Source of the DNA: Candidatus Sumerlaeota bacterium
Lineage (GTDB): Bacteria > Bacillota > SLNR01
NCBI GenBank assembly: GCA_007132905.1
Contig: SLNR01000060.1
Coordinates: forward strand, 1,442-65,441
Length of the DNA stretch: 64,000 nt
Direction: 5' to 3'
The notes beneath the pieces are model-generated. The model did no database searches. It worked only from the letters and a program-made list of their open reading frames with translations, and was not told the origin of the DNA. Made by a program: the position numbers and the translations under genes. Below are positions 2,744 through 40,055 of the stretch, in pieces; the stretch's first letter is position 1, and each line of letters starts with the position of its first letter.

Positions 2744-3763
<1,020 letters not shown>

Positions 3764-3780
3764 GAAAGAGAGGGATCAGG

Positions 3781-4965
3781 ATGGAGAAAAAAACAGTCCG
3801 CGATATGAACCTAGCCGGTAAAAAAGTCCTGGTGCGGGTTGATTTCAATGTGCCTATTGACAGTCAGGGCATTATTGCTGATGATAAGAGGATTAGAGAA
3901 GCTGTCCCTACAATTGAATATATTTGCCGTAAAGGCGGGCGTGTGATTCTCATTTCGCATCTAGGCAGACCTAAAGGAAAGATTGTTTCCAAGTTTCGTT
4001 TGGATCCGGTGGCAGAGCGCTTATCGAAAATACTTGGGAAAAAGGTGGTCAAATGCGATGATGCACTAGGTTTTAAGGTAAAAGAGGCGATCGGGGCCAT
4101 GAAAAACGGCGAGGTCGTTTTACTTGAAAATATCCGTTTTTATGCAGAAGAAGAAGAAAATGATGCAGAATTTGCGCAGCAGCTGGCCAGCATGGGAGAG
4201 ATTTATGTAAATGATGCTTTTGGGGCGGCGCATCGGGCCCACGCTTCCACGGAAAAAATTGCGTCTTATCTTCCTTCCGGAGCTGGTCTGTTGATGGAAA
4301 AGGAAATTTCTGTGATGCAGAGCGTTTTGTCTGAACCGAAAAGGCCCTTTGTAGCGGTGATCGGCGGTGCGAAGGTGTCGGATAAAATTGGAGTTTTAGA
4401 AAACTTGCTTGATAAGACAGATGTTTTAATCATCGGAGGCGGTATGGCCAACACATTTTTAAAGGCCAAAGGGTACCAAGTGGGAAGTTCTCTTCTCGAA
4501 GAGGATAAAGTAAAGACTGCCTCAGATCTTTTGGCCCGGGCAGAAAATATTGGCAGAGAGGTTTTTCTCCCTTCTGATGTGGCTATCGGAAAAGGAATTG
4601 ACGATTCCTCCCAAGTACAGATGGTGCAGGCTGACTGCATTCCTGAGGGATGGATGGCTTTAGACATCGGGCCAAAAACGCAAAAAAAATATGCTGAAAT
4701 GGTCATGAAAGCAGCTACAGTAATTTGGAATGGCCCAATGGGTGTTTTTGAACAAGAAGCATTTGAGAAGGGGACAAAAGCTATAGCAGAAGCCATCGCC
4801 AGATCAGAGGCTGTTTCTATTGTCGGCGGAGGCGATTCGGCCGCGGCCGTTGAGAAATTTGGCCTGGCCGACAAAATGACTCATGTGTCTACCGGTGGAG
4901 GAGCTTCTTTAGAGTTAATGGAAGGGAAAATCTTACCCGGAATTGCGGCCTTAGATAATAAATAG
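3781..4965 (+). CDS. pgk: phosphoglycerate kinase
   Basis: KKVLVRVDFNVP N-terminus and typical 394 aa length. ATG 3781 follows GAGGGA. The ORF-track start at 3706 would overlap gap. Confidence 0.95.
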   Translation: MEKKTVRDMNLAGKKVLVRVDFNVPIDSQGIIADDKRIREAVPTIEYICRKGGRVILISHLGRPKGKIVSKFRLDPVAERLSKILGKKVVKCDDALGFKVKEAIGAMKNGEVVLLENIRFYAEEEENDAEFAQQLASMGEIYVNDAFGAAHRAHASTEKIASYLPSGAGLLMEKEISVMQSVLSEPKRPFVAVIGGAKVSDKIGVLENLLDKTDVLIIGGGMANTFLKAKGYQVGSSLLEEDKVKTASDLLARAENIGREVFLPSDVAIGKGIDDSSQVQMVQADCIPEGWMALDIGPKTQKKYAEMVMKAATVIWNGPMGVFEQEAFEKGTKAIAEAIARSEAVSIVGGGDSAAAVEKFGLADKMTHVSTGGGASLELMEGKILPGIAALDNK

Positions 4966-5772: not shown

Positions 5773-7323
5773 GTGGGCGGCAGTGTTGATCAGCTGATGC
5801 TCGTGATTGTGGACGGCTGGGGCTTGAGAGAAGAGAAAGCCGGCAATGCCGTGAAAATGGCGAGAACACCTCACTTGGACAGATTCCTGGCCGCCTATCC
5901 CTCTACCCAATTGACAGCTTCGGGAGAGGCTGTTGGCTTGATGGCCGGCCAGATGGGAGATTCGAATGTGGGACATTTAAATCTAGGGGCCGGACGGATT
6001 GTATACCAGGATTTGGTAAGGATCAGCCAGGCTATAAAAGACGGGGAATTAAAAAAAAATAAAGTTATTCAAAGAGCCCTTGAGGAAGCAAAAGAAGAAG
6101 GGAAAAGCCTCCATTTGATGGGACTTTTATCCGACGGAGGAGTCCACAGCCACATAGAACATTTATTTGGCCTGCTTGATCAATGTCAAAGCCAGGATAT
6201 TGATTCTGTATATGTCCATGCTTTTCTTGATGGTCGTGATGTGCTGCCCAAGAGTGCAGACACATACATTAAGGCCTTAGAGGCAAAACTAGAAAATTAT
6301 AAGGGGGCCAAACTGGCGACGGTAATGGGACGTTATTACGCAATGGACCGAGATAATCGTTGGGATCGAATTGAGAAAGCGTACCATGCTATGACTGAAG
6401 GGGTCGGTCGCAAGACAGAAACAGGCAGGGATGCAGTGGCACAAGCCTACCAGGCCGGGGAAACGGACGAATTTGTTTATCCGACGGTTATTGTCGATGA
6501 TGAGGAAAAGCCGACCGGCACAATAAAAGCAAAAGATGTCATTTTGTTTTTTAATTTTAGAGCCGATCGGGCGAGGGAAATAACCAGGGCTTTTATAGAA
6601 AAAGAGTTTGAGAGAATTTCACGTCCATCGGGTTTTCTAGATGTTCATATGGTGTGCATGACTGAGTATGATAAAACGATTGATGCTCCGGTAGCTTTTT
6701 TGCCTAAATACATTCAGAACTCGCTGGGTGAGGTGTTGAGCAGGGAAGGAAGGCTGCAGTTGAGAATTGCCGAGACAGAAAAATATGCGCATGTAACTTT
6801 TTTTTTCAATGGAGGACAAGAAGAGCCGTTTTCTAAAGAGGAGCGTTTTTTAGTTCCCTCTCCGCCTGTATCCACTTATGATCTAGTACCGCAGATGAGT
6901 GCTCATGGAGTTAAAAACAAATTGATCTCCTCATTGAGAGAGGGAAAATACCAAGTATATATTGTTAATTTTGCGAATTTGGATATGGTAGGGCACAGCG
7001 GAAATTTCCCTGCCACTGTAAAAGCGGCGGAAACTGTGGATCAATGTGTGGGCGAAATAGCAGAAGAGATGGCGCTGCAAAAAGGATGCATGCTGCTCGT
7101 CTCCGATCACGGAAATGCAGAAGATATGATTGAAAATGGAACCGGGAAACCTTACACCTCCCATACTTCCAATGCGGTCCCCTTTGTACTGGTGGACCAA
7201 AGATTTCGGTACTGCCGCTTAGCGGAAGGGATTTTGGGTGATGTGGCGCCGACCATATTGGATATTCTGAATATAGAAAAGCCGGCAGAAATGACGGGGC
7301 ATTCCCTTTTGCGCTGTGACTAA
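5773..7323 (+). CDS. gpmI: 2,3-bisphosphoglycerate-independent phosphoglycerate mutase
   Basis: LVIVDGWG, GDSNVGHLNLGAGR and SDHGNAE motifs; 516 aa. The GTG start abuts the tpiA stop. ATG 5797 is an alternative start. Confidence 0.93.
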   Translation: MGGSVDQLMLVIVDGWGLREEKAGNAVKMARTPHLDRFLAAYPSTQLTASGEAVGLMAGQMGDSNVGHLNLGAGRIVYQDLVRISQAIKDGELKKNKVIQRALEEAKEEGKSLHLMGLLSDGGVHSHIEHLFGLLDQCQSQDIDSVYVHAFLDGRDVLPKSADTYIKALEAKLENYKGAKLATVMGRYYAMDRDNRWDRIEKAYHAMTEGVGRKTETGRDAVAQAYQAGETDEFVYPTVIVDDEEKPTGTIKAKDVILFFNFRADRAREITRAFIEKEFERISRPSGFLDVHMVCMTEYDKTIDAPVAFLPKYIQNSLGEVLSREGRLQLRIAETEKYAHVTFFFNGGQEEPFSKEERFLVPSPPVSTYDLVPQMSAHGVKNKLISSLREGKYQVYIVNFANLDMVGHSGNFPATVKAAETVDQCVGEIAEEMALQKGCMLLVSDHGNAEDMIENGTGKPYTSHTSNAVPFVLVDQRFRYCRLAEGILGDVAPTILDILNIEKPAEMTGHSLLRCD

Positions 7324-8619
<1,296 letters not shown>

Positions 8620-8972: not shown

Positions 8973-8998
8973 GTGAGACGGGTGGATGCCCGTCTCAC
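8973..8998 (+). terminator. perfect 10-bp hairpin GTGAGACGGG/CCCGTCTCAC between secG and hppA (no U-run)
   Basis: Read directly: arms 8973-8982 and 8989-8998, loop TGGATG. It is followed by AAAGATG, so it is not a canonical intrinsic terminator. Confidence 0.4.
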
Positions 8999-9059
8999 AA
9001 AGATGTCAAGATGTAATTTTTGGTCCATTAATAGTCATATCATACAGGAGGAGAGGTAT

Positions 9060-11024
9060 ATGGACGCATTTGTTTTGATTGCAGTGGCAGCTGGAATTGT
9101 GGCTTTGGTTTTTGCTTATATTCTGATAGGCCGGATTAATAGAAGTGACGAGGGAACGGATCGTATGAAAGAAATTGCCCATGCGATTCACGAAGGGGCA
9201 ATGGCTTTTATGGGGAGAGAATATCGAGCATTGGCTTTTTTCGTTCTAATTCTGTTTATCGTGCTTGCGGTCGTAATGAAATGGCAGACATCCGTTGCTT
9301 TTCTAGCCGGGGCTGTATGTTCGGGTTTGGCCGGCTATATCGGCATGAACGTGGCTACAAAAGCCAACGTAAGAACTTCGCAGGCAGCCAATGAAGGCAT
9401 CAATAAAGCTCTCGGAGTTGCTTTTTCAGGAGGAGCCGTTATGGGCATGTCGGTGGTTGGTTTAGGATTGGTTGGTTTAGGTATTGTCTATATTGTTTTT
9501 CGAGAGCCTGAAATCGTGAATGGTTTTGCTCTGGGAGCTAGTTCGATTGCCTTGTTCGCTCGAGTAGGTGGAGGAATCTACACAAAAGCGGCTGATGTGG
9601 GCGCTGATTTGGTGGGTAAGGTGGAAGCCGGTATTCCAGAAGACGACCCGCGAAATCCGGCTGTTATTGCGGATAATGTGGGAGATAATGTAGGCGATGT
9701 GGCCGGTATGGGAGCGGATTTGTTCGAATCATACGTAGGAGCGATTATTGCGTCCATTGCTATAGGAGTCGTTCAGTTTGGGTTTCCCGGGGTGGCGCTG
9801 CCCTTTGCATTGGCAGCTTCGGGAGTGGGGGCTTCTATTATAGGAACTTTCTTTGTCAAGACGGGAGAAGGGGCAAGTCCAAGTAAGGCTTTACAAAACG
9901 GAACCTTAATAAGCGGGCTTTTAGTTCTGGTGGCTTCGTTTTTCTTATCTAGATTCATTATTGGAGAGATGGGTCCTTTTTATGCCATCACCTTAGGATT
10001 AGTGGTGGGAATCATCATAGGGCAGGTTACCGAATATTATACTTCACCGGATAGAAAACCTGTGCAGGGTATCGCCGAATCTGCTCAGACAGGAGCTGCG
10101 ACAACTATCATCAGCGGTTTAGCCGTGGGAATGAGAAGCACAGCCGTTCCAATTCTGTTTATTTGTATGGCCATTTTCGGCGCCTATCGATTTGCAGGCT
10201 TATACGGTATTGCTTTAGCTGCTGTAGGTATGCTTTCGACAACAGGGATGACGGTGGCCGTGGATGCTTATGGCCCTATTGCGGATAACGCCGGCGGCAT
10301 TGCCGAAATGGCTGAGATGGACAAAGAGGTTCGAAAGGTCACGGATGAACTTGACGCAGTTGGAAATACAACGGCAGCCATCGGAAAAGGGTTTGCCATC
10401 AGTTCGGCGGCTTTGACGGCTTTGGCTTTGTTTTCTGCTTACGCAACAGCAGTAGGGTTAACCGCTGAGCGATTCTCGCTAATCAACCCCGAGGTAATTG
10501 TAGGAGTCTTCCTCGGTGCGATGCTGCCCTTCTTATTTTCTTCTATGGCTATGGAAGCAGTGGGCAAAGCAGCTTTCCAGATGATTGAAGAAGTTAGAAG
10601 ACAATTTAGAGAAATTCCGGGGATTATGGAAGGCAAAGCAAAGCCCGATCATGCTCGCTGTGTTGATATTAGTGCGGCGGCCGCTCTAAAAGAAATGATC
10701 CTACCTGGCTCCTTAGCGATCGTGGCTCCGCTTTTAGTAGGTCTGGTTCTGGGGAAAAATGCTTTGGGTGGATTGTTGGCCGGAGCGACATCGGCCGGTG
10801 TAATGATGGCTATTATGATGGCCAATGCCGGCGGTGCCTGGGATAATGCGAAAAAATACATTGAAAGCGGACATTATGGGGGGAAAGGAACAGAAACACA
10901 TGCAGCTGCCGTGGTTGGTGATACGGTCGGGGATCCTTTTAAGGATACAGCCGGTCCGTCTTTGAATATTCTGATCAAGCTCATGTCAATCGTAGCTCTT
11001 GTGTTTGCGCCCTTGTTTTTATAG
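9060..11024 (+). CDS. hppA: membrane-bound ion-translocating pyrophosphatase (K+-dependent type signature)
   Basis: Motifs [39 protein letters not shown] and [14 protein letters not shown] 9060 follows GGAGGAGAGG; the 8973 extension is not hydrophobic or conserved-looking. Ala in GNTTAAxGKG marks the K+-dependent clade. Confidence 0.93.
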
Positions 11025-11033
11025 ACTGACGAT

Positions 11034-11075
11034 AAGAAGGCTTCGCTTTCAGGGTGGAAAGGAGCCTTCTTTCTA
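11034..11075 (+). terminator. hairpin after hppA
   Basis: AAGAAGGCTTC (11034-11044) pairs with GGAGCCTTCTT (11061-11071), 11 bp including one G-U. A short TTCT tail follows. Confidence 0.55.
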
Positions 11076-11126
11076 TGAGCAAAGAGCAAGGATGTTGGAT
11101 TTGCGGTGGCGCGGCCCTTAGAAAAC

Positions 11127-11155
11127 TTTACAAAAAGGTAGGTAGATGGTAAAAT
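11127..11155 (+). promoter_or_regulatory. sigma-A type promoter (TTTACA, 17 nt spacer, TGgTAAAAT)
   Basis: -35 at 11127-11132 and extended -10 at 11147-11155, placed about 30 nt ahead of the riboswitch. Confidence 0.6.
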
Positions 11156-11184
11156 ACGATTAACGCCGTTTTGCTAGTTTCAAA

Positions 11185-11315
11185 CTGAATAGGACGCTGA
11201 ATCATTATGAGCGGGGGAACCAACTTTTGGGGTGAATCCGGATATTCGGTAGGGTCGCTCTCTTTCGATCCGAACCCGTCAGCTAACCTCGCAAGCGCAG
11301 GAAAGAGACGATCTT
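11185..11315 (+). promoter_or_regulatory. c-di-AMP riboswitch (ydaO-yuaA class)
   Basis: Conserved blocks in order: GAGCGGGGGAACCAA, TTGGGGTGAATCC, GGTAGGG, CCGAACCCGTCAGCTAACCTCGCAAGCG, GAAAGAGA. They are near-identical to the blocks I remember from the B. subtilis ydaO leader. Boundaries are approximate. Confidence 0.85.
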
Positions 11316-11369
11316 TCTCAGTCACTTAAGTTTGAGCTCTGTGCTTGCTGTGGAATGTTTGTGAAAGCA

Positions 11370-11396
11370 CCCCTGCGGACAGCGGGGTTTTTTCTT
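11370..11396 (+). terminator. intrinsic terminator acting as the riboswitch expression platform
   Basis: CCCC(T)GC, loop GGACA, GCGGGG, then TTTTTTCTTT, 38 nt before the first ORF. Confidence 0.7.
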
Positions 11397-11433
11397 TCAT
11401 AAACCATCTTTAATGGAGTGAGGGGATGATCAT

Positions 11434-12570
11434 ATGGGACAAAATGTTGATTCTCCTATGCCGGAAAACAGTAAGAAAAAGTATGCTGTAATCGGTGGGG
11501 GACACGGAGGATTAGCCATGGCGGGAGCTTTGGCAGTTCAAGGTTTTTCTGTTAATATGTTTAATAAAACGGCTGAGCGTATCAAGTATATAAAGATGAT
11601 GGGAGGAATCCAGGTTTCCGGAAAAATGGACGGCTTTGGCCGTTTAAACCGGGTGACGCATCGGATTAAGGAAGCGCTAGAAGATGTAGATATCATTATG
11701 GTTGTTATCCCTGCGACCGGGCATCGCTATGTCGCGGAAATCTGCGCCCAGTATTTACAAGACGGGCAGATGGTGGTTTTAAACCCGGGTCGGACAGGCG
11801 GAGCTTTGGAGTTTAGGGCAGTTCTTAGAAAAGCTAACGTAAAGGCAGATGTCATTATTGCCGAGGCTCAAACATTTATCTTTGCCAGCAGAACGATTGG
11901 TCCGGCTCAAAGCAGAATATTTGGTATCAAGAATGTCGTACCGGTGGCTGCGTTGCCGGCTATGAAAACCAGCCGGGTGGTGGAAGCTTTAAAGGAAGCT
12001 TTTCCTCAATTTGTTCCGGCTGACAATATTCTGCAAACTAGCTTTGACAATATCGGAGCGATTTTTCATCCTGCCCCTACAATATTAAATAGTGCCCGGA
12101 TTGAATCGACAGCAGGAGATTTTGAATATTATCATGAGGGCATTACGCCGGGGGTAGCCAAGATAATTGAACAAATGGATCATGAAAGGATTGCGGTGGC
12201 CGATGCTTTGGGCTTAAAAGCGATTTCTTCTCATGAATGGTTAGATTCTGCATACGGGGCGACCGGAAGCACACTTTATGATGCAATTCAAAATAACATT
12301 GGCTATAAAGGAATCAAGGCGCCTTCAAATCTTCAGCACCGCTATATCTTCGAAGATGTACCGGCAAGTTTGGTTCCGATTGCGTCCATTGGAGATATGC
12401 TTGGGGTAGAGACCGAGATGATCAAGGCGATCATTCGTCTTGCCACTGGAATTCACGGCGTGGATTATTGGAGCACAGGAAGAAATGTCCAGCGCCTGGG
12501 CATTGCGGGAATGACAGCAGAGCAGATTGTCGAGTTAGCTGAAAAAGGAAATGATGATAACGAAAATTAA
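11434..12570 (+). CDS. NAD(P)-dependent opine (octopine/nopaline-type) dehydrogenase family protein
   Basis: N-terminal Rossmann VIGGGHGGLAMAG, and overall resemblance to the opine dehydrogenase family including the C-terminal helical domain; 378 aa; GAGGGG RBS. Confidence 0.75.
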   Translation: MGQNVDSPMPENSKKKYAVIGGGHGGLAMAGALAVQGFSVNMFNKTAERIKYIKMMGGIQVSGKMDGFGRLNRVTHRIKEALEDVDIIMVVIPATGHRYVAEICAQYLQDGQMVVLNPGRTGGALEFRAVLRKANVKADVIIAEAQTFIFASRTIGPAQSRIFGIKNVVPVAALPAMKTSRVVEALKEAFPQFVPADNILQTSFDNIGAIFHPAPTILNSARIESTAGDFEYYHEGITPGVAKIIEQMDHERIAVADALGLKAISSHEWLDSAYGATGSTLYDAIQNNIGYKGIKAPSNLQHRYIFEDVPASLVPIASIGDMLGVETEMIKAIIRLATGIHGVDYWSTGRNVQRLGIAGMTAEQIVELAEKGNDDNEN

Positions 12571-12590
12571 AGCGAAGGAGGATGCTGTGT

Positions 12591-13574
12591 ATGATGCATG
12601 TTGGGCTGTTGTACAGTCAAAGCGAAATCGACAAGGATATGGAGCATGAAGTAAATCCTCACGGGGCCATTCAAATGGATGTTACTGTGAAGGCCATAGA
12701 AGGGGCCTTAAAGGAAAACGGCCACAAGGTTACCTTGATTCCGGCAGGTCTTGATTTGCTTCAAAGACTTCCGCAAATTGAAAATTTGGATATTATCTTT
12801 AACGCTTCCACAGGAATCACCAAAAAAAGCCAGCAGGCTCATGTGGTGGCCATGTTGGAAATGCTCGATGTTCCTTTTGTCGGATCGAGTCTTTCGACTC
12901 ATATATTAGGCCTTCATAAACAGATAACGAAAAGGATCTTCATGACGGCTGGTATTCCGACCCCAAAATTCCAGATGTTTTTTACCGGGGAGGAACCGCT
13001 TGACAAAGAGCTCAATTTTCCTTTGATCATTAAACCCGACCATGAAGGTTCGAGTATCGGGATTACCAAGGACAGCGTAGTACACGATGAAGAGACGTTA
13101 AGAAAAAGAGTCAAAATAATGGTAAAAGAATTTGACCAGCCGGCTCTTTGCGAGGAGTTTATAAAGGGAAGAGAATTTACAATTGGAGTTTTGGGTAACG
13201 AAGATCCGGAATTATTCCCGATTGAGGAGATTATTTTTGATCATCGCGATACAGATAAATTAGGTGCGATGACTTTGGATATTAAGGCCAGAGATGCGAT
13301 TAAACCGAAAGCGCCGGCTGATCTTGATGAAGAGAAAGCCGAAGAAATGCGCAAATATGCTTTGATGGGTTATCATATTCTTGGGTGCCGCGACTTTGCT
13401 CGCATTGACATTCGAATGGATGAAGATGAAGTACCTTATTTCCTTGAAGTGAACACCCTTCCGGGTATGCAGCCTGATTACAGCGAGTTCCCGCGAATGT
13501 CGGTGGTTGCCGGATATGAATATAAGGATTTAGTCGAAAAACTGATGAGCGTTGCCTTAGAGCGGTATAAGTAG
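12591..13574 (+). CDS. ATP-grasp ligase, D-alanine--D-alanine ligase-like
   Basis: PLIIKPDHEGSSIGI, EEFIKGREFTIGVLG and FLEVNTLPGM (Mg/ATP site) motifs. ATG 12591/12594 is properly spaced from AAGGAGG 12575-12581. The track start 12582 abuts the RBS. Confidence 0.8.
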   Translation: MMHVGLLYSQSEIDKDMEHEVNPHGAIQMDVTVKAIEGALKENGHKVTLIPAGLDLLQRLPQIENLDIIFNASTGITKKSQQAHVVAMLEMLDVPFVGSSLSTHILGLHKQITKRIFMTAGIPTPKFQMFFTGEEPLDKELNFPLIIKPDHEGSSIGITKDSVVHDEETLRKRVKIMVKEFDQPALCEEFIKGREFTIGVLGNEDPELFPIEEIIFDHRDTDKLGAMTLDIKARDAIKPKAPADLDEEKAEEMRKYALMGYHILGCRDFARIDIRMDEDEVPYFLEVNTLPGMQPDYSEFPRMSVVAGYEYKDLVEKLMSVALERYK

Positions 13575-13608
13575 TAAGGTATTTGTTTTTATAAACAGCA
13601 AGGAAAGG

Positions 13609-13659
13609 GAATTGCCGGCGGAAGCACAATGGTTAGTTTTGTGCGGCCGCCGGCAATTC
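13609..13659 (+). other. long intercistronic hairpin (about 19 bp) without U-run
   Basis: GAATTGCCGGCGG-AA-GCACAA / TTGTGC-GG-CCGCCGGCAATTC, arms 13609-13629 and 13639-13659. Confidence 0.6.
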
Positions 13660-13695
13660 TGTAATGACCTGCTTGAAATGACAAGGAGGGAAGCT

Positions 13696-14097
13696 ATGAA
13701 GAATAGACGTGACAGCATGTGTTTTGCTTGTGGAGAAGATAACCCCATCGGACTCCATCTGTCTTTTTCGGTTCTATCTGAAGATGAGATTCAAACGAAC
13801 TTTGTTGTCAAAGAAGAGCATCAAAGTTATGATGGAATGATGCACGGTGGATTAATGGCTGTTTTGCTGGATGAGGTGATGGGGAAACTGCTTTCTTTGA
13901 AAGGATTATATGCGCCGACCGCTAAGCTGGAGATCCGGTATCGCAAAGAGGTTTGTGTCGGCGAAAAGCTAACCATCTACGGCAGGATAGTTTCAATGCG
14001 GGGCAGAATGATAGAGATGGAAGCGAAAACTGAGCAGGCTGATGGGAATATTGCAGCCGAGGCTAAAGGAAAATTTATGAAAACAGACCGTAATTAA
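13696..14097 (+). CDS. hotdog-fold (PaaI-type) thioesterase
   Basis: CFACGEDNPIGLHLSF and GMMHGGLMAVLLDEVMG are typical of PaaI/4HBT-like proteins. ATG 13696 lies 6 nt after GGAGG. Confidence 0.75.
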   Translation: MKNRRDSMCFACGEDNPIGLHLSFSVLSEDEIQTNFVVKEEHQSYDGMMHGGLMAVLLDEVMGKLLSLKGLYAPTAKLEIRYRKEVCVGEKLTIYGRIVSMRGRMIEMEAKTEQADGNIAAEAKGKFMKTDRN

Positions 14098-14112
14098 GGA
14101 CTACTTGAAAGC

Positions 14113-15519
14113 GTGGCGAACTCTATGGAACTAGTTTTACTCGCGGATATTGGAAGCACTTATACCAAATTACTGGTGGTTGATATAGGGAGTTTTTGTG
14201 TTGTTAGTAAAGCTTTTGGATTGACGACAGCAAAACAGGATATCACCATAGGTTTGCGGGCGGCCTTAGACGATATGGAAAAACAAACAGGTTTTACACT
14301 TAAGGACTTTCGCCACCGTTTGGCCTGCTGTAGTGCCGCCGGCGGTCTGCAGATGGCTGCGATTGGTCTGGTTCCCGAATTGACCGCGGAAGCGGCTAAG
14401 CGGGCCTCTTTGGGTGCTGGAGCTAGGGTGCTGAAAACCTATTCCTATGAGATGACAGAAAGTGACAAAGAGGATTTAGAATCACAGCCTTGCGATATTA
14501 TTCTTTTGGCTGGAGGGACCGATGGTGGCGACCGATCAGCGATAAGGCATAACGCCAGATGCTTGGCAAGCACATCTTTGCAAGTTCCGGTGATTGTGGC
14601 AGGTAACCGTATTGCCGCAGATGAAGTTAAGGAAATCCTGCAGACAACGGGAAAGGAAGTCATTGTAACCGAAAATGTGCTGCCTTCTTTAAAGAAGTTG
14701 AATATCGAGCCGGCCCGCAAAGCGATCAGGGAGGTTTTTATTGATAAGATTATTGAAGGCAAGGGATTTGAACAGATACAAGATATGTTAGGGAGTATAT
14801 TAATGCCGACGCCTGCAGCGGTGATGGAGGCGGCTCGTTTGCTTTCTGGAGGCTTAGAGAAAAAAGACGGTTTGGGAGATTTGGTGGTTGTTGACATAGG
14901 TGGGGCCACGACAGATGTTCATTCAGTCGCCGAAGGGGTGCCAACTACGCCCAATACAGTTGAAAGAGGACTCCCGGAACCCTTAGTAAAAAGAACGGTG
15001 GAGGGAGACTTAGGATTGAGGGTAAGTGTTTTGTCTCTGCTGGAAGCAGCTGGAGTTGAGCATATCCAAAAAGAAATAGACGGCAGTGAAGAAGGACTGC
15101 GAAAGAAAATTGAACTACTGTCAAAGCAGATTGATTACCTCCCGGCTTCGGATGAAGACTCAAAGTTAGAAGCGGCTCTTGCCAAAGCGGCGGCGGAAAT
15201 TGCTATGAACAGACATGCCGGTTTTTTGGAGAAATTGACGACTCCCAGCGGTATTATGTATTCTCAAACAGGCAAAGATCTAACTCGTGTTCGTTATGTC
15301 ATCGGAACAGGAGGAATTTTTGCCCATTCTCCCTATGCCGAGGCAATATTGAAAAAGGTGTGTATGGATCCAAAGCGGCCGGATCGACTTAAACCGACCG
15401 ACCCCAAACTTATTATTGACAAACAATATTTGCTTTGGGGTATGGGGCTTTTGCAAAGTTATGATCCAAAAGCTGCTTTAAAGATGATGAAGAAGAGAAT
15501 CATTGAGAACGAAAAATGA
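14113..15519 (+). CDS. MutL-like ASKHA ATPase (glutamate mutase component-L family, putative B12-enzyme chaperone/reactivase)
   Basis: ADIGSTYTK and VVDIGGATTDVHS phosphate-binding motifs; length about 465 aa. ATG 14125 is an alternative start. Confidence 0.7.
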   Translation: MANSMELVLLADIGSTYTKLLVVDIGSFCVVSKAFGLTTAKQDITIGLRAALDDMEKQTGFTLKDFRHRLACCSAAGGLQMAAIGLVPELTAEAAKRASLGAGARVLKTYSYEMTESDKEDLESQPCDIILLAGGTDGGDRSAIRHNARCLASTSLQVPVIVAGNRIAADEVKEILQTTGKEVIVTENVLPSLKKLNIEPARKAIREVFIDKIIEGKGFEQIQDMLGSILMPTPAAVMEAARLLSGGLEKKDGLGDLVVVDIGGATTDVHSVAEGVPTTPNTVERGLPEPLVKRTVEGDLGLRVSVLSLLEAAGVEHIQKEIDGSEEGLRKKIELLSKQIDYLPASDEDSKLEAALAKAAAEIAMNRHAGFLEKLTTPSGIMYSQTGKDLTRVRYVIGTGGIFAHSPYAEAILKKVCMDPKRPDRLKPTDPKLIIDKQYLLWGMGLLQSYDPKAALKMMKKRIIENEK

Positions 15520-15652
15520 TGGACTAAAGAGTGGATACAAAACAGGCATGGTTTTTCTGATCTGCTGGAGAGCAATGGTCATTATTGTTAATGAGAAAGA
15601 GCCTGCTTTACATAAAAAGAGAAAAAAGGATGGACGATGAGGGGGAATAGCA

Positions 15653-17302
15653 ATGACGAAAATATTGGCAGCTTCTTTGGGAGAGTGTGTTCATGTAGCG
15701 GGGATTATGAATTTTTTGCGGCTGGCAGAGGATCAGGGGCACGAGACGGAATTTTTAGGTCCGGCGACTTCCATTGAGGAATTCATCGGAGCCATCCGGG
15801 AAGTAGATCCGGATATTGTGGCGGTGAGTTATCGACTGACTCCTGAAACAGCAGAAAGTTTGTTAGAAGAATTCAAACAAGCCCTTGAAGAAGCGGGTCT
15901 TGCTCAACGTCGGTTTTGTTTCGGGGGAACTCCCCCGGTAGTCGAAGCAGCCAGAAAACTTGATTTTTTTGAGATGACTTTTTCCGGTGAGGAGCCTGTG
16001 GAACATGTCATTTCATATATTAAAGGACAGGACCCAACCGAGCTTAAGGAATCTGATTTTGCGGCAAAAATTATACCGCGGATGGAAAATAAGAAACCTT
16101 TTCCTGTTATCCGGCATCACTTTGGCCTTCCCGCTGAAACAATTGAACCGACTCTGGAAGGGATTAAAAAGATCGCTGATGCTCAGGTCCTCGATGTAAT
16201 TTCACTGGGGCCGGACCAAGATGCACAGGAAAATTTCTTTCACCCGGAAAGAATTAATCCATCTAGAAGAGGAGCAGGAGGGGTACCGGTACGAACCGAA
16301 GACGATTTCAAAGCTTTGTATGAGGCTACTAGAAGAGGAAATTTTCCTCTTATGCGTTCGTACAGCGGCACCAAAGATCTATTAGAATACGCAGAAATGC
16401 TCTGCAGAACTATTCGCAATGCGTGGTGCGCCACTTCAACTTTTTGGTTTAATGCTCTCGATAAAAGAGGACCTATGCTTTTGGAGGAATCGATTAACGA
16501 GCATTTTAAACTAATGGCTTGGCACGGCAGAGAGGATGTTCCGGTAGAGGGCAATGAGTCCCACCATTGGGAACTTCGCAACGGGCATGATGTGGTGGCG
16601 GTGGTTTCATCATACATCAGTGCTTATGGATGTAAAAAAGCGGGCGTGAAAGATTACATTGCACCCTATATGTTTAATACTCCTCCTCATTTATCCGATA
16701 AGATGGATTTGGCAAAAATGCTGGCAAAGGCAGAAATGATTGAGTCTCTTGAGGATAGAAGTTTTCGTTGTTACCGACAAACAAGAACCGGTTTACTTAG
16801 TTATCCGGTGGATTTAGATTATGCCAATGGACAGCTTGGGGCCTCGATTTATCTGCAAATGGCGATGAAACCTGATATTATCCACGTGGTTGCCTCCTGT
16901 GAAGCAAACCACGCAGCCCGGCCGGAGGATATTATCGAAAGCTGTAAAATGGCTCGTCAGATTATTCAAAAGTGTATTTATGGAATGCCGGATATGACGG
17001 TTGATCCTGAGATTCAAGAAAGAAAGACTGTTCTAATGGAGGAAGCAAAGCAGCTGCTAGAAGCTATCAGAAGCTTGGGAAGTGAATCCGATGAAGATCC
17101 GCTTTTTGATGCGGCAGTCCTGGCCAAGGCAGTTAAGGTTGGTCTTTTGGATGCCCCCCAGCTAAAAGGGAATCCCCTGGCGTGTGGGCAGGTTGAAACA
17201 AAAATTCACAACGGTGCCAACTATGCCGTTGATCCCGAGACAAAAGAGATTCTTACCGAAGAGGAGAGAATTGAAAAAGTCTTTGCTAACTGGAGAGAAT
17301 AA
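15653..17302 (+). CDS. B12-binding-like domain fused to a large uncharacterised C-terminal domain
   Basis: The N-terminal ~130 aa align by eye with glutamate mutase S (GECVHVAG versus GSDCHAVG; VSYRL...; FGGTPP). The remaining ~420 aa are not recognisable to me. Confidence 0.6.
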   Translation: MTKILAASLGECVHVAGIMNFLRLAEDQGHETEFLGPATSIEEFIGAIREVDPDIVAVSYRLTPETAESLLEEFKQALEEAGLAQRRFCFGGTPPVVEAARKLDFFEMTFSGEEPVEHVISYIKGQDPTELKESDFAAKIIPRMENKKPFPVIRHHFGLPAETIEPTLEGIKKIADAQVLDVISLGPDQDAQENFFHPERINPSRRGAGGVPVRTEDDFKALYEATRRGNFPLMRSYSGTKDLLEYAEMLCRTIRNAWCATSTFWFNALDKRGPMLLEESINEHFKLMAWHGREDVPVEGNESHHWELRNGHDVVAVVSSYISAYGCKKAGVKDYIAPYMFNTPPHLSDKMDLAKMLAKAEMIESLEDRSFRCYRQTRTGLLSYPVDLDYANGQLGASIYLQMAMKPDIIHVVASCEANHAARPEDIIESCKMARQIIQKCIYGMPDMTVDPEIQERKTVLMEEAKQLLEAIRSLGSESDEDPLFDAAVLAKAVKVGLLDAPQLKGNPLACGQVETKIHNGANYAVDPETKEILTEEERIEKVFANWRE

Positions 17303-17375
17303 TGAGTGAGAGAACCCAAAGAGCACAAATAGACGGAAAAGGTGTAATTTCCAAGTAAAAAGGAGTGTTTTATGG

Positions 17376-17927
17376 ATGACTCGCGAAGAAGCGCTAAAGT
17401 TAGTTAAAAGGAATGTCAAAACAAAGAATTTAGTCAAACACATGATTGCTGCAGAAGCAGTCATGGCAGAGCTTGCTAAGCATCTAAGCGAGGATAAGGG
17501 AAAATGGGGGCTAGCCGGTTTACTTCATGACATTGACTACGAAGAAACCAAAGATGATCCCAAAAAGCACAGTCTCATCGGAGCAGAGATGCTTGATGAA
17601 TTAGGGGTTGACAGGGAGATCGTTCAGGCAGTGAGGGTGCATAATGAAGAGCACGGTATTCCCAGAGAAACGTTAATGGACAAGGCACTTTATGCTGTTG
17701 ATCCTCTGACCGGTTTAATTGTGGCCGCAGCTTTAATCCATCCGGACAAGAAAATAAGCTCCATCGACACCGGGTTTGTGATGAACCGGTTTGGCGAAAA
17801 ACATTTTGCCAAAGGAGCCAACAGAGAGAACATTAAGGCTTGCCAAGATTTTGGCATGGATCTTGATGAGTTTGTCGAAATTGGTGTAGCAGCGATGCAG
17901 GAAGTTTCTTCAGAAATCGGATTGTAG
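17376..17927 (+). CDS. HD-domain phosphohydrolase
   Basis: H...LLHDIDYE...H pattern; 183 aa; AGGAG RBS. Confidence 0.7.
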   Translation: MTREEALKLVKRNVKTKNLVKHMIAAEAVMAELAKHLSEDKGKWGLAGLLHDIDYEETKDDPKKHSLIGAEMLDELGVDREIVQAVRVHNEEHGIPRETLMDKALYAVDPLTGLIVAAALIHPDKKISSIDTGFVMNRFGEKHFAKGANRENIKACQDFGMDLDEFVEIGVAAMQEVSSEIGL

Positions 17928-18001
17928 GTAGGATAAAATACATGGGAGGATCGCGGTTACTGCGACTCTCTTCATAATAAAAAAGAAGGATGAGGTTTTT
18001 T

Positions 18002-20140
18002 ATGGATAAACAAGATTTGATAAAAGAAATTATGGGAAAGAAAGAATACCGACCACTGACAAAAAAAGAGCTCCTTAAAAAGGTCTATCGACATGGTAAG
18101 GGCCAAGAAGATGGGGAGACGGTTTTAAAAGAGATGGAAAACAAAGGTGAAATTGTTAAAAATCAGTCAGGGCGCTACGGACTTCCGGGACCTATGGGTT
18201 TTGTGGTTGGAGAGCTTGAGCTAAACCCTAAAGGGTTTGGTTTTCTTCTTCCAGATGAAGAAGGAAGGCAAGATGTCTACATTGATGGTGAAAAAATGGG
18301 TTCTGCGATGCATGGCGATAGAGTCCTTGTTCGCTTGCTTAGTTCGCAATCCACTGATATGAGAAGAGAGAAAAGGGCCGAAGGGGAAGTTGTTCGGATA
18401 ATAAGAAGGTCCGACCCTGTGATTGTGGGCATTTTTCAACGGACACAAAATTACGGCTTCGTGATCCCGGATAGTCCAAAAGTTTTGGAGCACATTCTAA
18501 TCCCTGAAGGGAAAACTTCAAAAGCAAAAGACGGCCAAAAAGTAGCGGTTAAGATCGAAACGTGGCCCAAAGAACAACGCCTTCCCGCGGGGATCGTAAT
18601 AAATGTGCTCGGTCAGCCCGGAGAAGAGGAGGCTGAGAGAGAAGCAGTAGTATTAAAGCACGGATTGAAGAAAGATTTTTCGAAAGAATCTCTTCACGAA
18701 GCGGAAAAACTGGAAGAAAATATTGGTAATGAAATGGGGCAAAGGGAAGATTTAAGAGATTTGTTTACGGTAACCATTGACGATGCCGAAGCAAAAGATT
18801 TGGACGATGCTGTGTCTTTAGAAAGAATAGATGAGGATAAAGTCCGTCTTGGGGTCCACATTGCTGATGTAAGTTTCTATGTCAAGAAGGGTTCTGCCCT
18901 TGATCTTGAAGCAGGCGAAAGAGGAACAAGTGTTTATTTGATTGATCGAGTTATTCCTATGCTTCCTCCTCGATTATCTAATCATCTCTGCAGTTTAAAT
19001 GCCGATGAAGACAAACTTGCCGTTACTGTGTTCATGGATCTTGACAGCAGCGGGAACTTATTAAGTTATCGAATTGCAGAAAGCATGATACGTATAGATC
19101 ACAGGCTGACTTATGAATACACTTCTCGTCTGATCAGCGGGGATATAACCATTGAAAATGAAGCAGAAAAGAAAATCCATGACTTAGTCGTATTCTTGGA
19201 AGAAGTGAGCATGGGTCTTAGAAAAAAACGATTTGCAGCCGGAAGCATCGATTTTGATTTTCCCGAGGCGAAAATAGAGTTGGATGAACAGGGGCAGGTT
19301 TTGAATGTAAGAAGGGCAGAGAGATACACAGCCCACTGGATTATTGAAGAGTGTATGCTGGCGGCTAATCAAACGGTGGCAGAGCATATTCAAAGAAAAC
19401 AAATGCCCGGTTTATTTCGCATTCATGAGGCGCCGAATGAAGAAGCAGTGGAACATTTAAGAAATTTTCTCCCGACCTTAGGGTACCGGCTTAGGGGGAA
19501 AAAGAAGCTAACACCTAAGTCACTTCAGAAAGTATTAAAGGCATCCTCCAAAAGAGGTATGGAGCCTTTAGTAGGACGGGTAATTTTACAGGCGATGGAA
19601 CGGGCTCGCTATTCCATTGAAAATACGGGCCATTTTGGTCTAGCTTTTAAAAACTATACCCACTTTACTTCGCCCATTCGAAGATATCCGGATCTTATGG
19701 TCCATCGTTTGCTCAAAGAAGCAAATACCGAAGAAACTCATAGGAAAAAAGATAAAGTTCATTTGAAGCAACTTCGTGAAGCAGCAGTCGCTTCTTCGGC
19801 TGCGGAGAGAAAAGCGGCCGAAGCTGAATATGAGTGGGTTGATCGGAAGAAGATGGAGTTTTTAGGCGGCCAATTGGGAGAAATATTTGAGGGTATGATC
19901 AGCAGTGTCACGAATTTCGGCTTGTTTGTTCAACTTGAAAATACGATTGAAGGTCTTGTTCATATCAGTAATATGAATGATGATTACTATACCTTTGATG
20001 AAAAACACTATCTTTTAAAAGGGCGGCGTACGAAAAAGAGCTATCAATTAGGGGATAGAGTGGAAGTGCAGGTTGTAAAAGTGGATGTGTCTTCAACTCA
20101 GGCGGATTTCATTTTAGTTGACGCATCAGAGAAGGTTTAA
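18002..20140 (+). CDS. rnr: ribonuclease R
   Basis: RNB-domain motifs TIDDAEAKDLDDAVS and HFTSPIRRYPDL, plus a C-terminal S1 domain (GMISSVTNFGLFVQL). Confidence 0.93.
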   Translation: MDKQDLIKEIMGKKEYRPLTKKELLKKVYRHGKGQEDGETVLKEMENKGEIVKNQSGRYGLPGPMGFVVGELELNPKGFGFLLPDEEGRQDVYIDGEKMGSAMHGDRVLVRLLSSQSTDMRREKRAEGEVVRIIRRSDPVIVGIFQRTQNYGFVIPDSPKVLEHILIPEGKTSKAKDGQKVAVKIETWPKEQRLPAGIVINVLGQPGEEEAEREAVVLKHGLKKDFSKESLHEAEKLEENIGNEMGQREDLRDLFTVTIDDAEAKDLDDAVSLERIDEDKVRLGVHIADVSFYVKKGSALDLEAGERGTSVYLIDRVIPMLPPRLSNHLCSLNADEDKLAVTVFMDLDSSGNLLSYRIAESMIRIDHRLTYEYTSRLISGDITIENEAEKKIHDLVVFLEEVSMGLRKKRFAAGSIDFDFPEAKIELDEQGQVLNVRRAERYTAHWIIEECMLAANQTVAEHIQRKQMPGLFRIHEAPNEEAVEHLRNFLPTLGYRLRGKKKLTPKSLQKVLKASSKRGMEPLVGRVILQAMERARYSIENTGHFGLAFKNYTHFTSPIRRYPDLMVHRLLKEANTEETHRKKDKVHLKQLREAAVASSAAERKAAEAEYEWVDRKKMEFLGGQLGEIFEGMISSVTNFGLFVQLENTIEGLVHISNMNDDYYTFDEKHYLLKGRRTKKSYQLGDRVEVQVVKVDVSSTQADFILVDASEKV

Positions 20141-20214: not shown

Positions 20215-20243
20215 TTGACAAGGGGCGCTAGGTCCTTTATAAT
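20215..20243 (+). promoter_or_regulatory. consensus sigma-A promoter TTGACA, 17 nt spacer, TATAAT
   Basis: Exact hexamers at 20215-20220 and 20238-20243. Confidence 0.65.
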
Positions 20244-20842: not shown

Positions 20843-21194
20843 GGGGGCGACTAGCATCGACGGGAGCTGACAGGAATAAGAGCGGCAAGTCGAGATCCCG
20901 CATGCTCGTAAAACAGCGGACCGATTCAAATGCAAACGAAAATCACTCTTTAGCCGCTGCATAAGTGGCTAACGTCCACCTGGCTTTTGTCTATGGAGCT
21001 AGACTGGGCGCCACTTACATAGGCTGCCGACCTGGACCTGTCCAAAGATAGGTCGAAAGACGAGACGGACTAGTCCGCTTTTAATCCAGCCTTCGGGAGT
21101 AAAAACGGACGAACTTCGAAAACGAAGGATAAACTTGTAGAAGCTCTTGTTGCTGTGCTTTCGGACGCGGGTGCAAATCCCGCCGCCTCCACCA
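20843..21194 (+). ncRNA. ssrA: tmRNA (SsrA), tag ANENHSLAAA
   Basis: 5' GGGGGCG pairs with 3' CGCCTCC-A-CCA, including the G3-U70 alanine identity pair. T-arm GGGTGCAAATCCC. Tag ORF GCA...GCA TAA at 20932-20964. It lies immediately after smpB. Confidence 0.93.
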
Positions 21195-32508: not shown

Positions 32509-32585
32509 CGGGGTGTAGCTCAGTTTGGTAGAGCACTTGGCTTGGGACCAAGGGGTCGTGGGTTCAAATCCCTCCGCTCCGACCA
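32509..32585 (+). tRNA. tRNA-Pro (UGG)
   Basis: Hand-folded cloverleaf. Acceptor CGGGGTG/CGCTCCG, anticodon loop CTTGGGA, CCA encoded. One T-stem mismatch. Confidence 0.88.
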
Positions 32586-32610
32586 TTTTCTCTGCAGGCG
32601 AGCAGGTCAG

Positions 32611-32684
32611 GCGGGTGTAGCTCAGTGGTAGAGCGGGAGCCTTCCAAGCTTCATACGAGGGTTCGATTCCCTTCACCCGCTCCA
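32611..32684 (+). tRNA. tRNA-Gly (UCC)
   Basis: Acceptor GCGGGTG/CACCCGC, anticodon loop CTTCCAA, T-loop TTCGATT, CCA encoded. Confidence 0.92.
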
Positions 32685-32692
32685 TAATATTT

Positions 32693-32768
32693 GCGCCTGT
32701 AGCTCAGAGGATAGAGCAACGGACTTCTAATCCGTTGGCCGTAGGTTCGACTCCTACCAGGCGCGCCA
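32693..32768 (+). tRNA. tRNA-Arg (UCU)
   Basis: Acceptor GCGCCTG/CAGGCGC, anticodon loop CTTCTAA, CCA encoded. Confidence 0.92.
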
Positions 32769-32787
32769 ATTTTGATGAGATGTTTGT

Positions 32788-32864
32788 GGTGGGTGTAGCT
32801 CAGCGGTTAGAGCACTGGACTGTGGCTCCAGGTGCCGGGGGTTCGATTCCCCTCACTCACCCCA
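32788..32864 (+). tRNA. tRNA-His (GUG) with encoded G-1
   Basis: The extra 5' G opposite discriminator C, anticodon loop CTGTGGC, CCA encoded. Confidence 0.92.
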
Positions 32865-32892
32865 TGATAGTATTACAACAATACATGTTTTT

Positions 32893-32969
32893 GCGCCCGT
32901 AGCTCAGCTGGATAGAGTAACAGACTTCGAATCTGGGGGTCGCAGGTTCGAATCCTGCCGGGCGCGCCA
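32893..32969 (+). tRNA. tRNA-Arg (UCG)
   Basis: Acceptor GCGCCCG/CGGGCGC, anticodon loop CTTCGAA, CCA encoded. Confidence 0.88.
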
Positions 32970-32988
32970 GGATAATCAAGATATGTGT

Positions 32989-33062
32989 TGGGGCGTGGCC
33001 AAGCGGTAAGGCACGGGATTTTGGATCCTGTATCGTTGGTTCGAATCCAGCCGCCCCAGCCA
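32989..33062 (+). tRNA. tRNA-Gln (UUG)
   Basis: Acceptor TGGGGCG/CGCCCCA, anticodon loop TTTTGGA, CCA encoded. Confidence 0.9.
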
Positions 33063-33099
33063 TTTTTTGTTTTTTTGTGTTTTCACGATGAAGAGGAAT

Positions 33100-33184
33100 G
33101 CGAGGGTGGCGGAATTGGCAGACGCGCTAGACTTAGGATCTAGTGCCTTCGGGCGTAAGGGTTCAACTCCCTTCCCTCGCACCA
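33100..33184 (+). tRNA. tRNA-Leu (UAG)
   Basis: Class II tRNA with long variable arm TGCCTTCGGGCGT, anticodon loop CTTAGGA, CCA encoded. Confidence 0.92.
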
Positions 33185-33192
33185 AAACAGGT

Positions 33193-33267
33193 GCGGAAGT
33201 AGCTCAGTGGTAGAGCATCGCCTTGCCAAGGCGAGGGCCGCGAGTTCAAATCTCGTCTTCCGCTCCA
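33193..33267 (+). tRNA. tRNA-Gly (GCC)
   Basis: Acceptor GCGGAAG/CTTCCGC, anticodon loop TTGCCAA, CCA encoded. Confidence 0.92.
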
Positions 33268-39811: not shown

Positions 39812-40055
39812 GGTAAGTTACTCATATTTTTATGACAATGACCGGAAGAAGTACACGACTGCTTCGACAGAGAGGGGACCCTGGGCTGAAAGTCTCCAAA
39901 AGACGTGGAAGGTCGTTCGGGAGTTTCTCTGTGGAAATGAGTACACGGGGACGGTGAAGTCCGTTAGAGCTCAAGGGTCCCGGAATCCGGGGAACGAAGG
40001 TGGTACCGCGGAAAACCTCATTCCGTCCTTTGACGGTTTGAGGTTATTTTATTTC
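39812..40055 (+). promoter_or_regulatory. T-box leader (tRNA-Val sensing presumed) with terminator
   Basis: AGAGAGG stem-I element, conserved T-box core AAGGTGGTACCGCG at 39997-40010, and terminator AAACCTCA...TGAGGTT with a T-rich tail at 40013-40055. Directly upstream of valS. Confidence 0.85.

Follow-up and report, generated by a model that had tools for sequence, protein, structure and literature searches.

A 64,000-nt window of DNA from a Candidatus Sumerlaeota bacterium (contig SLNR01000060.1; coordinates below are positions in this window, and the leader and cassette lie on its forward strand) contains a cyclic di-AMP (c-di-AMP) riboswitch that heads a cassette of genes for soluble enzymes, among them an opine dehydrogenase family NAD(P)H oxidoreductase (ODH) and a putative B12-dependent mutase of 549 residues. 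The link between the ODH–mutase pair and c-di-AMP is systematic, with the riboswitch being the rule in Firmicutes carriers of the pair and being echoed in Chloroflexota by genes for DarA-type c-di-AMP receptors. We propose, giving this reading about even weight, that a terminating, OFF-type c-di-AMP riboswitch controls an operon for an uncharacterised small-molecule pathway, by which the cell would make a rearranged solute of the opine type at low c-di-AMP.

The aptamer lies at 11185–11312 and belongs to the ydaO/yuaA class. Specifically, the RF00379 covariance model matches the leader over its positions 1–134 of 134 and scores 101.1 bits (E 7.7e-23; gathering score 38), and a permissive rescan of 11000–18100 found no other credible Rfam family even at E ≤ 1. 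A sigma-70-type promoter-like site (11127–11155; TTTACA and TAAAAT separated by 17 nt, TG-extended, 10/12 in the consensus scan) is located 30 nt 5' of the aptamer, whereas 59 nt 3' of it the terminator scan places an intrinsic terminator at 11371–11397, of which the GC-rich hairpin proper, CCCTGC-GGACA-GCGGGG, spans 11371–11387 and is followed by the T-run TTTTTTCTTT. The ODH gene starts with the ATG at 11434. This layout of promoter, aptamer and terminator is kept in four related loci of the window clade (L001–L004), whose orthologous aptamers score 97–108 bits; when aligned with these relatives, both promoter hexamers (−35 and −10) vary little or not at all, and a hairpin with a T-run is present in all five window-clade leaders, with differing stem sequences. 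A preliminary description of this DNA had read the leader as a promoter, a ydaO/c-di-AMP riboswitch and a terminator with a U-run and had suggested a search with RF00379; all three elements are borne out, the riboswitch by a match over its full length.

Terminator-type platforms of the ydaO/yuaA class are expected to act as OFF switches (PMC10636490; see also PMC6488665), and predicted OFF regulation by the terminator at 11371–11397 is well supported by this analogy and by the conservation of the platform. Minimum free energy folding of the leaders reproduced neither the aptamer nor a clear antiterminator. We therefore describe the putative expression platform as a terminator with a weakly supported candidate competing helix, in which GCGGGGGAAC, an invariant segment of the aptamer, would pair with the 5' arm of the terminator. 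The riboswitch shares its aptamer class, full length and terminator-type platform with the Bacillus ydaO/yuaA riboswitches (kimA/ktrAB, kdpFABC). It differs from them in the genes that it precedes, which encode soluble enzymes and not K+ or osmolyte transporters or wall hydrolases.

The association between aptamer and cassette is more than a coincidence of one genome, because it recurs in 40 other loci from different species. Two sets of loci were examined, one of 80 loci from different species, mostly Chloroflexota, and one of 60 loci sampled from the Firmicutes side (the Clostridia/Tissierellia branch) of the mutase family; a covariance model built from the five window-clade leaders was run on all of them. 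In the window clade, the riboswitch is present in all four relatives. In two Chloroflexota loci with opposite gene orders, L055 and L022, an aptamer lies directly upstream of the cassette, with Rfam scores of 98.8 and 73.8 bits, respectively. On the Firmicutes side, an aptamer is found 150–340 nt upstream of the ODH gene in 34 of the 60 loci. By record label, the upstream DNA was long enough in 38 Bacillota loci, of which 33 carry the aptamer; the remaining locus of the 34 is labelled Varibaculum, and none of the 16 loci of other phyla in this set carries the riboswitch. Ten of the 34, mostly from cultured strains and including Thermosediminibacter, Fervidicola, Thermoanaerobacterium, Anaerosalibacter and Tepidanaerobacter, also passed the Rfam gathering threshold in a second check, with 89–105 bits. 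Additionally, a hairpin with a T-run separates the aptamer from the first gene in 37 of the 40 riboswitch-bearing leaders.

In many of the Firmicutes leaders (L167–L224; for example L170 at about 4790–4825), the terminator stem is near-identical, (A/G)CUAUGG...CCAUAG(C/U), and the conserved segment CAGCUAAC of the aptamer is similar or complementary to its arms, which hints at a common switching helix other than that of the window clade. In the window-clade relative L004, group II intron domains (2694–2989; RF02001 with 134 bits, and RF01998) are inserted between the pyrophosphatase gene and the riboswitch, and both riboswitch and cassette are intact. Anoxybacter fermentans (L081), a cultured carrier, is the notable exception on the Firmicutes side: the riboswitch is absent, an ISL3-family transposase gene (7140–8342) lies directly upstream of the ODH gene, and a gene for a Crp-family regulator follows the mutase gene. 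Insertion of the ISL3 element may have displaced the leader in this species.

In Chloroflexota, a second connection to c-di-AMP is provided by genes for DarA-type receptors, which lie in or beside the cassette in eight loci. PF06153 scores 69.5–107.8 bits (cut-off 27) in L011, L012, L014, L016, L055 and L207, and the GGFL motif of the nucleotide-binding loop is kept as TTGGFL or AGGFL in the translations. In L011–L014, DarA is the first gene of DarA-GlmL-ODH(-ODH)-mutase operons, and in L016 it heads the order DarA-GlmL-mutase; in L055, a short distance upstream of the riboswitch, there is a DarA-type gene. In L061 and L207, genes on one strand follow each other in the order mutase, ODH, AsnB-type amidotransferase, UPF0316 membrane protein, CBS-pair protein and CitMHS/ArsB/NhaD-type permease, and a tandem pair of DarA genes comes last. 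These genes share PF06153 and the loop with the PII-like receptor DarA/PstA, but they lie in or beside an enzyme operon. For the DarA/PstA of Firmicutes, a 2023 review gives no known target and states that the partner "has escaped its identification" (PMC10636490), and, according to a 2026 preprint on S. aureus, the first target of PstA is GlnR (PMC13484208). The role of DarA/PstA has been called a long-standing question, for which the darA-led operons with GlmL, ODH and mutase genes offer candidate partners. Control of the ODH–mutase pair by c-di-AMP is not universal, as is taken up below.

Comparison of the gene neighbourhoods defines the core of the system. In the 80-locus set, the B12 gene stands beside an ODH gene, in either order, in about 70 loci, and on the Firmicutes side the order ODH-then-mutase or its reverse is found in 54 of 60. 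By comparison, GlmL is present in about 16 of the 80 loci, and the Ddl-like and hotdog genes occur together solely in L001–L004. The core unit is therefore ODH plus mutase, and the ligase, hotdog and GlmL genes are lineage-specific additions. The minimal Firmicutes operon consists of two genes, and in most Firmicutes the ODH and mutase genes overlap or abut with the riboswitch directly before them. Natural gene fusions tie the same proteins together: ODH and mutase form a single chain in P0142 and in the 924-aa P0030, which stands for a cluster of 17 sequences, the mutase is fused to an ATP-grasp ligase in P0128, and the mutase barrel is fused to GlmL in P0146, P0150 and P0156. Since ODH and mutase are both paired and fused, the product of one enzyme is likely the substrate of the other. 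An AsnB-type glutamine-dependent amidotransferase gene is additionally found near the pair in 10 or more loci.

The second partner of the pair, encoded at 15653–17302, has 549 residues and joins a B12-binding domain to a TIM barrel of the glutamate mutase type. PF02310 covers residues 3–119 (43.7 bits), with His14 and Gly17 of the cobalamin-binding motif invariant and the Asp of the base-off/His-on motif DxHxxG replaced by a nearly invariant Cys12 (C-V-H-V-A-G). Beyond these residues no Pfam family matches, including PF06368, the GlmE model, which is reached by some members of the family (for example P0128, 27.5 against 26.6 bits), and PDB searches with the single sequence and with a 40-sequence profile recognised just the B12 domain and otherwise hit de novo TIM barrels, so that the remainder was assigned by structure prediction and profile–profile comparison. 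In a confident AlphaFold2 model built from the 40-sequence alignment (pLDDT 87.9, pTM 0.85), a Rossmann-like domain precedes an alpha/beta barrel. Its top Foldseek match is the GlmE subunit of glutamate mutase (1cb7_B, E 2.4e-17, TM 0.65), followed by ornithine 4,5-aminomutase (OraE), lysine 5,6-aminomutase (KamD) and then acyl-CoA mutases (MCM). In line with this, a comparison by hhalign with a GlmE profile, made from an alignment of 66 loci with glmS-glmL-glmE operons that had been fetched with a GlmL profile, gives 97.8% probability (E 4.1e-12) over 430 columns at 16% identity. The family itself is compact and strongly conserved as judged from its sequences, with 273 representatives of clusters at 50% identity found at E ≤ 1e-30 in an exhaustive profile search. 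These comparisons lead us to conclude that the 549-aa protein, a distant homologue of glutamate mutase, is a single-chain descendant of both subunits (S and E) of the glutamate-mutase lineage, with a remodelled pocket.

The protein shares with GlmS/GlmE and GlmL of Clostridium cochlearium and C. tetani the B12 Rossmann domain, the GlmE-homologous barrel and the GlmL partner, and differs in its fused S-then-E chain, in having about 14–16% identity to GlmE and in having CxHxxG in place of DxHxxG. At the level of gene order, the cassette differs from the glutamate mutase operons by the lack of a neighbouring methylaspartase gene and by the mutase's obligatory partner, an opine dehydrogenase. The substrate pocket differs as well. 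Five residues that we take to bind glutamate in GlmE (Arg66, Arg100, Arg149, Glu171 and Tyr181), each confirmed at its position in the C. tetani protein, were followed through the profile alignment: Arg100 corresponds to an invariant Gln192, Glu171 to a deletion in the window family and Tyr181 to Asp270, and Arg66 is replaced by His156 with Arg154 in phase and Arg149 by Ser236 with Arg235 adjacent. Because these residues are not conserved, the substrate is probably one other than glutamate. Glu171 contacts the amino group of the substrate in glutamate mutase, and its loss would fit an N-substituted, opine-type substrate. The protein also misses the GlmS equivalog NF002612 (21.1 against 110 bits), and we set aside a canonical glutamate mutase in view of the substrate residues together with the equivalog models. 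Thus, while the B12-type mutase with its chaperone that had been named in the preliminary description agrees with the top fold match, the profile comparison and the GlmL assignment below, the suggested glutamate or methylaspartate substrate has become doubtful. As a separate observation, a paralogous group of 600–635-aa proteins (P0161, P0163, P0166, P0168 and similar) matches the profile over the barrel only (positions of about 140–545) and has another N-terminus of about 190 residues that matches no Pfam family; it may be a sister family with another cofactor-binding module.

The ODH (11434–12570, 378 aa) matches PF02317, the Octopine_DH helical domain, with 175.2 bits (cut-off 30), and its N-terminal NAD(P)-binding fold is recognised by NAD_Gly3P_dh_N and NAD_binding_2 over residues 17–115 and by the motif VIGGGHGG. 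The nearest solved structure, Arthrobacter N-(1-D-carboxyethyl)-L-norvaline dehydrogenase (CENDH, 1bg6), aligns from end to end (E 1.4e-84). His212, Arg303 and Asp308 of the window ODH align with His212, Arg324 and Asp329 of scallop octopine dehydrogenase, which we take to be the catalytic triad of that enzyme; the alignment supports an intact triad and a probably competent enzyme. The window ODH thus resembles CENDH over its whole length and the Pecten octopine dehydrogenase (3c7a) in its triad. These characterised enzymes are not known to work with a partner, whereas the ODH gene here is genomically locked to a B12 mutase.

GlmL (14113–15519, 468 aa), which ends 133 nt upstream of the mutase gene, passes the equivalog model for accessory proteins of B12 mutases (NF040745, 606.6 against 475 bits; PF13941, 560 bits). 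It is a member of the ASKHA-like "MutL" family, distinct from the MutL of mismatch repair. The remaining two genes of the block encode a Ddl-family ATP-grasp ligase and a hotdog-fold thioesterase. The ligase (12582–13574, 330 aa) has the PF07478 C-terminal domain (141 bits) and DdlA as its best PDB match (E 1e-31), but the Pfam and NCBIfam profile scans detected no Ddl N-terminal domain, and it falls below all NCBIfam Ddl/Van cut-offs (best NF002378, 175 against 243 bits). Since the curated models fail, it was not assigned as a D-alanine–D-alanine ligase; it is filed by family only. In Anaerosalibacter and a relative (L185, L193 and L196, about 3747–4599), a same-strand Ddl-like gene lies upstream of the riboswitch, outside its control. 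The hotdog protein (13696–14097, 133 aa) is of the PaaI/4HBT type (PF03061, 43.5 bits, cut-off 20.6; TIGR00369 marginal, 37.9 against 36.6 bits).

Based on these findings, we propose the following sequence of events. When c-di-AMP is high, the aptamer at 11185–11312 would fold, the terminator at 11371–11397 would form and transcription would end before the ODH gene; when c-di-AMP is low, RNA polymerase would read through into the cassette. In studied Firmicutes, c-di-AMP falls under potassium limitation or osmotic upshift. The ODH would then reductively join an amine to a 2-oxo acid, or catalyse the reverse, and the single-chain mutase, predicted to use adenosylcobalamin (AdoCbl), would act on the N-carboxyalkyl amino acid (opine) made or consumed by the ODH, rearranging its carbon skeleton, with GlmL keeping the mutase active. 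In the window, the Ddl-family ligase would amidate a carboxylate, and ATP-grasp ligases and the glutamine amidotransferase together could turn carboxylates into amides, thereby converting an acidic opine into a neutral solute. We favour a biosynthetic flavour because these recurrent ligases and the AsnB-type amidotransferase consume ATP. Most likely, the product would be an organic solute or counter-ion for osmotic or potassium/glutamate homeostasis, a role suggested by expression at low c-di-AMP together with the permease, CBS, MscS and Na+-pyrophosphatase neighbours. Functions connected with K+ and osmolytes lie at the core of the published regulons of c-di-AMP riboswitches (PMC7266159, PMC3766115).

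An analogy is offered by the N-acetylglutaminylglutamine amide (NAGGN) osmolyte pathway. There, Ngg and AsnO, an ATP-grasp ligase and an AsnB-type amidotransferase, yield a charge-neutral, N-capped osmolyte derived from amino acids. The analogy goes no further than this description; the synthesis of NAGGN is not known to involve a B12 mutase or an opine dehydrogenase.

A bolder form of the proposal, which we hold to be unlikely as it stands, is that the pair forms an "opine mutase" system: the ODH would add an N-carboxyalkyl or transient imine handle to an amino acid, and an AdoCbl enzyme that dispenses with pyridoxal phosphate would rearrange the resulting secondary amine, leading after amidation or ligation to a new class of compatible solute or counter-ion, gated by c-di-AMP through RNA in Firmicutes and through DarA binding the enzymes in Chloroflexota. 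We know of no B12 enzyme that rearranges a secondary-amine substrate. If true, the mutase, GlmL or the ODH would be an enzymatic target of DarA.

Several observations weigh against the proposed biosynthetic operon. In the leader, the antiterminator candidate formed by GCGGGGGAAC and the 5' arm of the terminator beats shuffled sequences in just three of five cases. In the mutase, the change of Asp to Cys in DxHxxG makes the cobalamin-binding mode uncertain, and the mapping of the active site depends on a profile alignment at 16% identity that may err locally. The canonical relatives of the mutase and its accessory protein, GlmE and GlmL, are catabolic. The presence of a hotdog thioesterase points to a step with a thioester, for which neither the proposed scheme nor the catabolic scheme considered next accounts. 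Both the riboswitch and DarA are absent from most Chloroflexota loci and from all Actinomycetota, Aminicenantes and Bacteroidales loci. Finally, the lone expression datum found, for Thermoanaerobacter, has the ODH up in an ethanol-adapted strain and is silent on salt (PMC3751872).

The main rival, to which we give the same low weight as to the bolder proposal, is that the cassette is catabolic and degrades an amino acid or an imported opine-like compound, much as glutamate mutase opens the methylaspartate route, with c-di-AMP tuning glutamate or amino-acid pools. The ancestry of the mutase and GlmL fits this view: once a GlmL alignment profile was used, a scan with the single GlmL sequence having given nothing, 66 of 80 GlmL loci proved to lie beside canonical GlmE in glmS-glmL-glmE operons. 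Opine dehydrogenases are reversible, and the minimal Firmicutes operon has just two genes. c-di-AMP is also tied to glutamate homeostasis in B. subtilis (PMC7857571). However, neither the window nor most other loci have a methylaspartase-type lyase, a hydratase or an uptake transporter with the pair, the glutamate-binding residues are not kept, and the additional genes that recur encode ATP-consuming ligases and an amidotransferase, as is typical of biosynthesis.

A role in the cell wall, through modification of a precursor, for example into an unusual D-amino-acid-like or amidated building block, seems improbable to us. Genes for cell-wall remodelling form one of the recognised classes under ydaO control (PMC7266159, PMC3766115). 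Additionally, a Ddl-family ligase and AsnB-type amidotransferases are repeatedly encoded near the pair; enzymes of both families act in peptidoglycan synthesis. Nevertheless, the ligase is missing from most loci and scores below every Ddl/Van cut-off, the Anaerosalibacter Ddl-like gene lies where the riboswitch would not control it, and neither a Mur ligase gene nor any other wall gene accompanies the cassette.

Slightly less probable still is that the riboswitch governs just the leader or the first gene, with internal promoters driving the genes downstream. The tight spacing of five same-strand genes that was claimed earlier holds, with gaps between the six ORFs (the five and a possible sixth gene) of 11, 37 (or 121), 15, 133 and 73 nt, and so does the lack of internal terminators, the terminator scan having found no terminator-like site in any intergenic gap of the cassette; what had to be corrected is the start of the hotdog gene. 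The ATG at 13696 is most likely the true start, rather than the mechanically called TTG at 13612, because an AGGAGG Shine–Dalgarno sequence lies 5 nt upstream of it and because a public metagenome-assembled genome (MAG) with an identical B12 protein has the product at 133 aa. The 133-nt gap before the mutase gene, the strong hairpin between the ligase gene and the hotdog gene and promoter-like hexamers within the cassette (for example 12106–12135 and 13805–13833, 10/12) speak for this reading. On the other hand, the 18 promoter-like sites counted are barely above the 13.9 ± 3.8 expected from shuffles, the gaps contain no terminator, the riboswitch directly precedes overlapping or abutting ODH and mutase genes in most Firmicutes, and in L003, where the gene order is shuffled, the riboswitch still heads the block. 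That the five genes behave as a unit is supported by their synteny in L001–L004 and by the fusions elsewhere, but the conserved core is confined to ODH and mutase.

The least probable alternative by our estimate makes the 549-aa protein a methyltransferase or carrier of the corrinoid type rather than a radical mutase. It has in its favour the database names (methionine synthase, cobalamin-binding protein, MCM cobalamin-binding subunit), the best sequence matches of the N-terminal domain, which are corrinoid proteins of methyltransferase systems (4jgi, 1y80, 7xcn), and the missing Asp of DxHxxG, but homology to GlmE extends over the 430 residues of the C-terminal part, whose modelled fold is like that of the AdoCbl mutase barrels, the protein co-occurs with and is fused to GlmL, an accessory protein of such mutases, and no methyltransferase partner genes are linked, so that the barrel and the GlmL links rule out "methionine synthase" or a corrinoid methyltransferase as the main assignment.

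The pair of B12 protein and ODH has a history. It was predicted as a novel B12-dependent family in 2009 by Zhang, Rodionov, Gelfand and Gladyshev, who described an N-terminal distant B12-binding domain in a protein always encoded beside a pfam02317 octopine/nopaline dehydrogenase, with D-Ala:D-Ala ligase and asparagine synthase near the pair in some genomes (PMC2667541), and the genome paper of Halothermothrix orenii (Mavromatis et al.) reports the same two-gene operon, Hore_09740/Hore_09750 (PMC2626281). The family and its neighbourhood are the same as in the window, which adds the ligase, hotdog and GlmL genes in a riboswitch-led block; neither paper gives a function, a GlmE-like barrel, a link to GlmL or a connection to c-di-AMP. 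The cassette, first put forward as the best candidate for an undescribed system, is therefore not wholly undescribed, since its core pair had already been noted as an orphan. The accompanying statement that the enzyme combination maps to no characterised pathway stands, as none was found to match. Full-text literature searches, which in one case listed 40 of 691 papers, and with the gene lists of the primary riboswitch papers outside their scope, returned neither a later characterisation nor a paper connecting the pair with c-di-AMP. What appears to be new is the systematic c-di-AMP control, the assignment at the level of fold and the evidence from fusions.

Together, these comparisons would give an orphan B12 family known since 2009 a glutamate-mutase-like fold, a chaperone, obligatory partners through its fusions and a substrate that is probably not glutamate, which makes a new AdoCbl reaction plausible. 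c-di-AMP signalling is known chiefly from K+ and osmolyte transport and from a small number of protein targets, and a pathway of soluble enzymes placed after the riboswitch in most of its Firmicutes carriers would add an output of a new kind. Because the carriers include cultured organisms (Tepidanaerobacter, Thermosediminibacter, Fervidicola, Anaerosalibacter, Thermoanaerobacterium and Halothermothrix), the proposal can be tested by standard methods.

Within the cassette, the gap between the ligase and hotdog genes carries a long hairpin lacking a T-run at 13609–13660 (−38.3 kcal/mol, z = −6.4 against shuffles), which is near-perfect (GAATTGCCGGCGG...CCGCCGGCAATTC). L001 and L002 also have hairpins at this place, of other sequence and with z values of −1.8 and −2.3, and L003 has none. 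The hairpin could be a processing or stability element. Downstream of the mutase gene, the possible sixth gene (17376–17927) encodes a 183-aa HD/HDIG phosphohydrolase (PF01966, TIGR00277) with weak similarity to YqeK-type Ap4A hydrolases. It follows the mutase gene in the window, in L001–L003 and in the MAG copy and nowhere else among the loci examined. The generic HD/HDIG match and the weak YqeK-like similarity are all that would recommend it as a c-di-AMP phosphodiesterase, and this assignment was not adopted.

Among the neighbours of the cassette in other genomes, a gene for an MscS-type mechanosensitive channel (L083, 4178–5032) adjoins a gene for an ODH::mutase fusion on the opposite strand. 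A small membrane protein of the UPF0316 type (DUF5698 plus DUF2179; NF003191, 219 bits) recurs beside the cassette in Chloroflexota and Actinomycetota (L033, L039, L040, L043, L049, L061, L067, L073, L076, L205, L207–L209, L214 and L217).

In the window, the gene directly upstream of the leader encodes a Na+-translocating pyrophosphatase (8973–11024; NF001960, 1034 bits), past whose stop codon lies an inverted repeat, AAGAAGGCT...AGCCTTCTT, at 11034–11071; the order pyrophosphatase, riboswitch, cassette is kept in L001–L004. Downstream, the cassette is followed by the gene for RNase R (17990–20140), a promoter-like site that matches the consensus at 12/12 positions (20215–20243) and the tmRNA gene (20843–21194, 177 bits), an arrangement that represents the usual rnr/ssrA neighbourhood and is common to L001–L004. 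Elsewhere, the window contains a cluster of eight tRNA genes (32509–33264) and a T-box leader (39829–40033, 113.9 bits).

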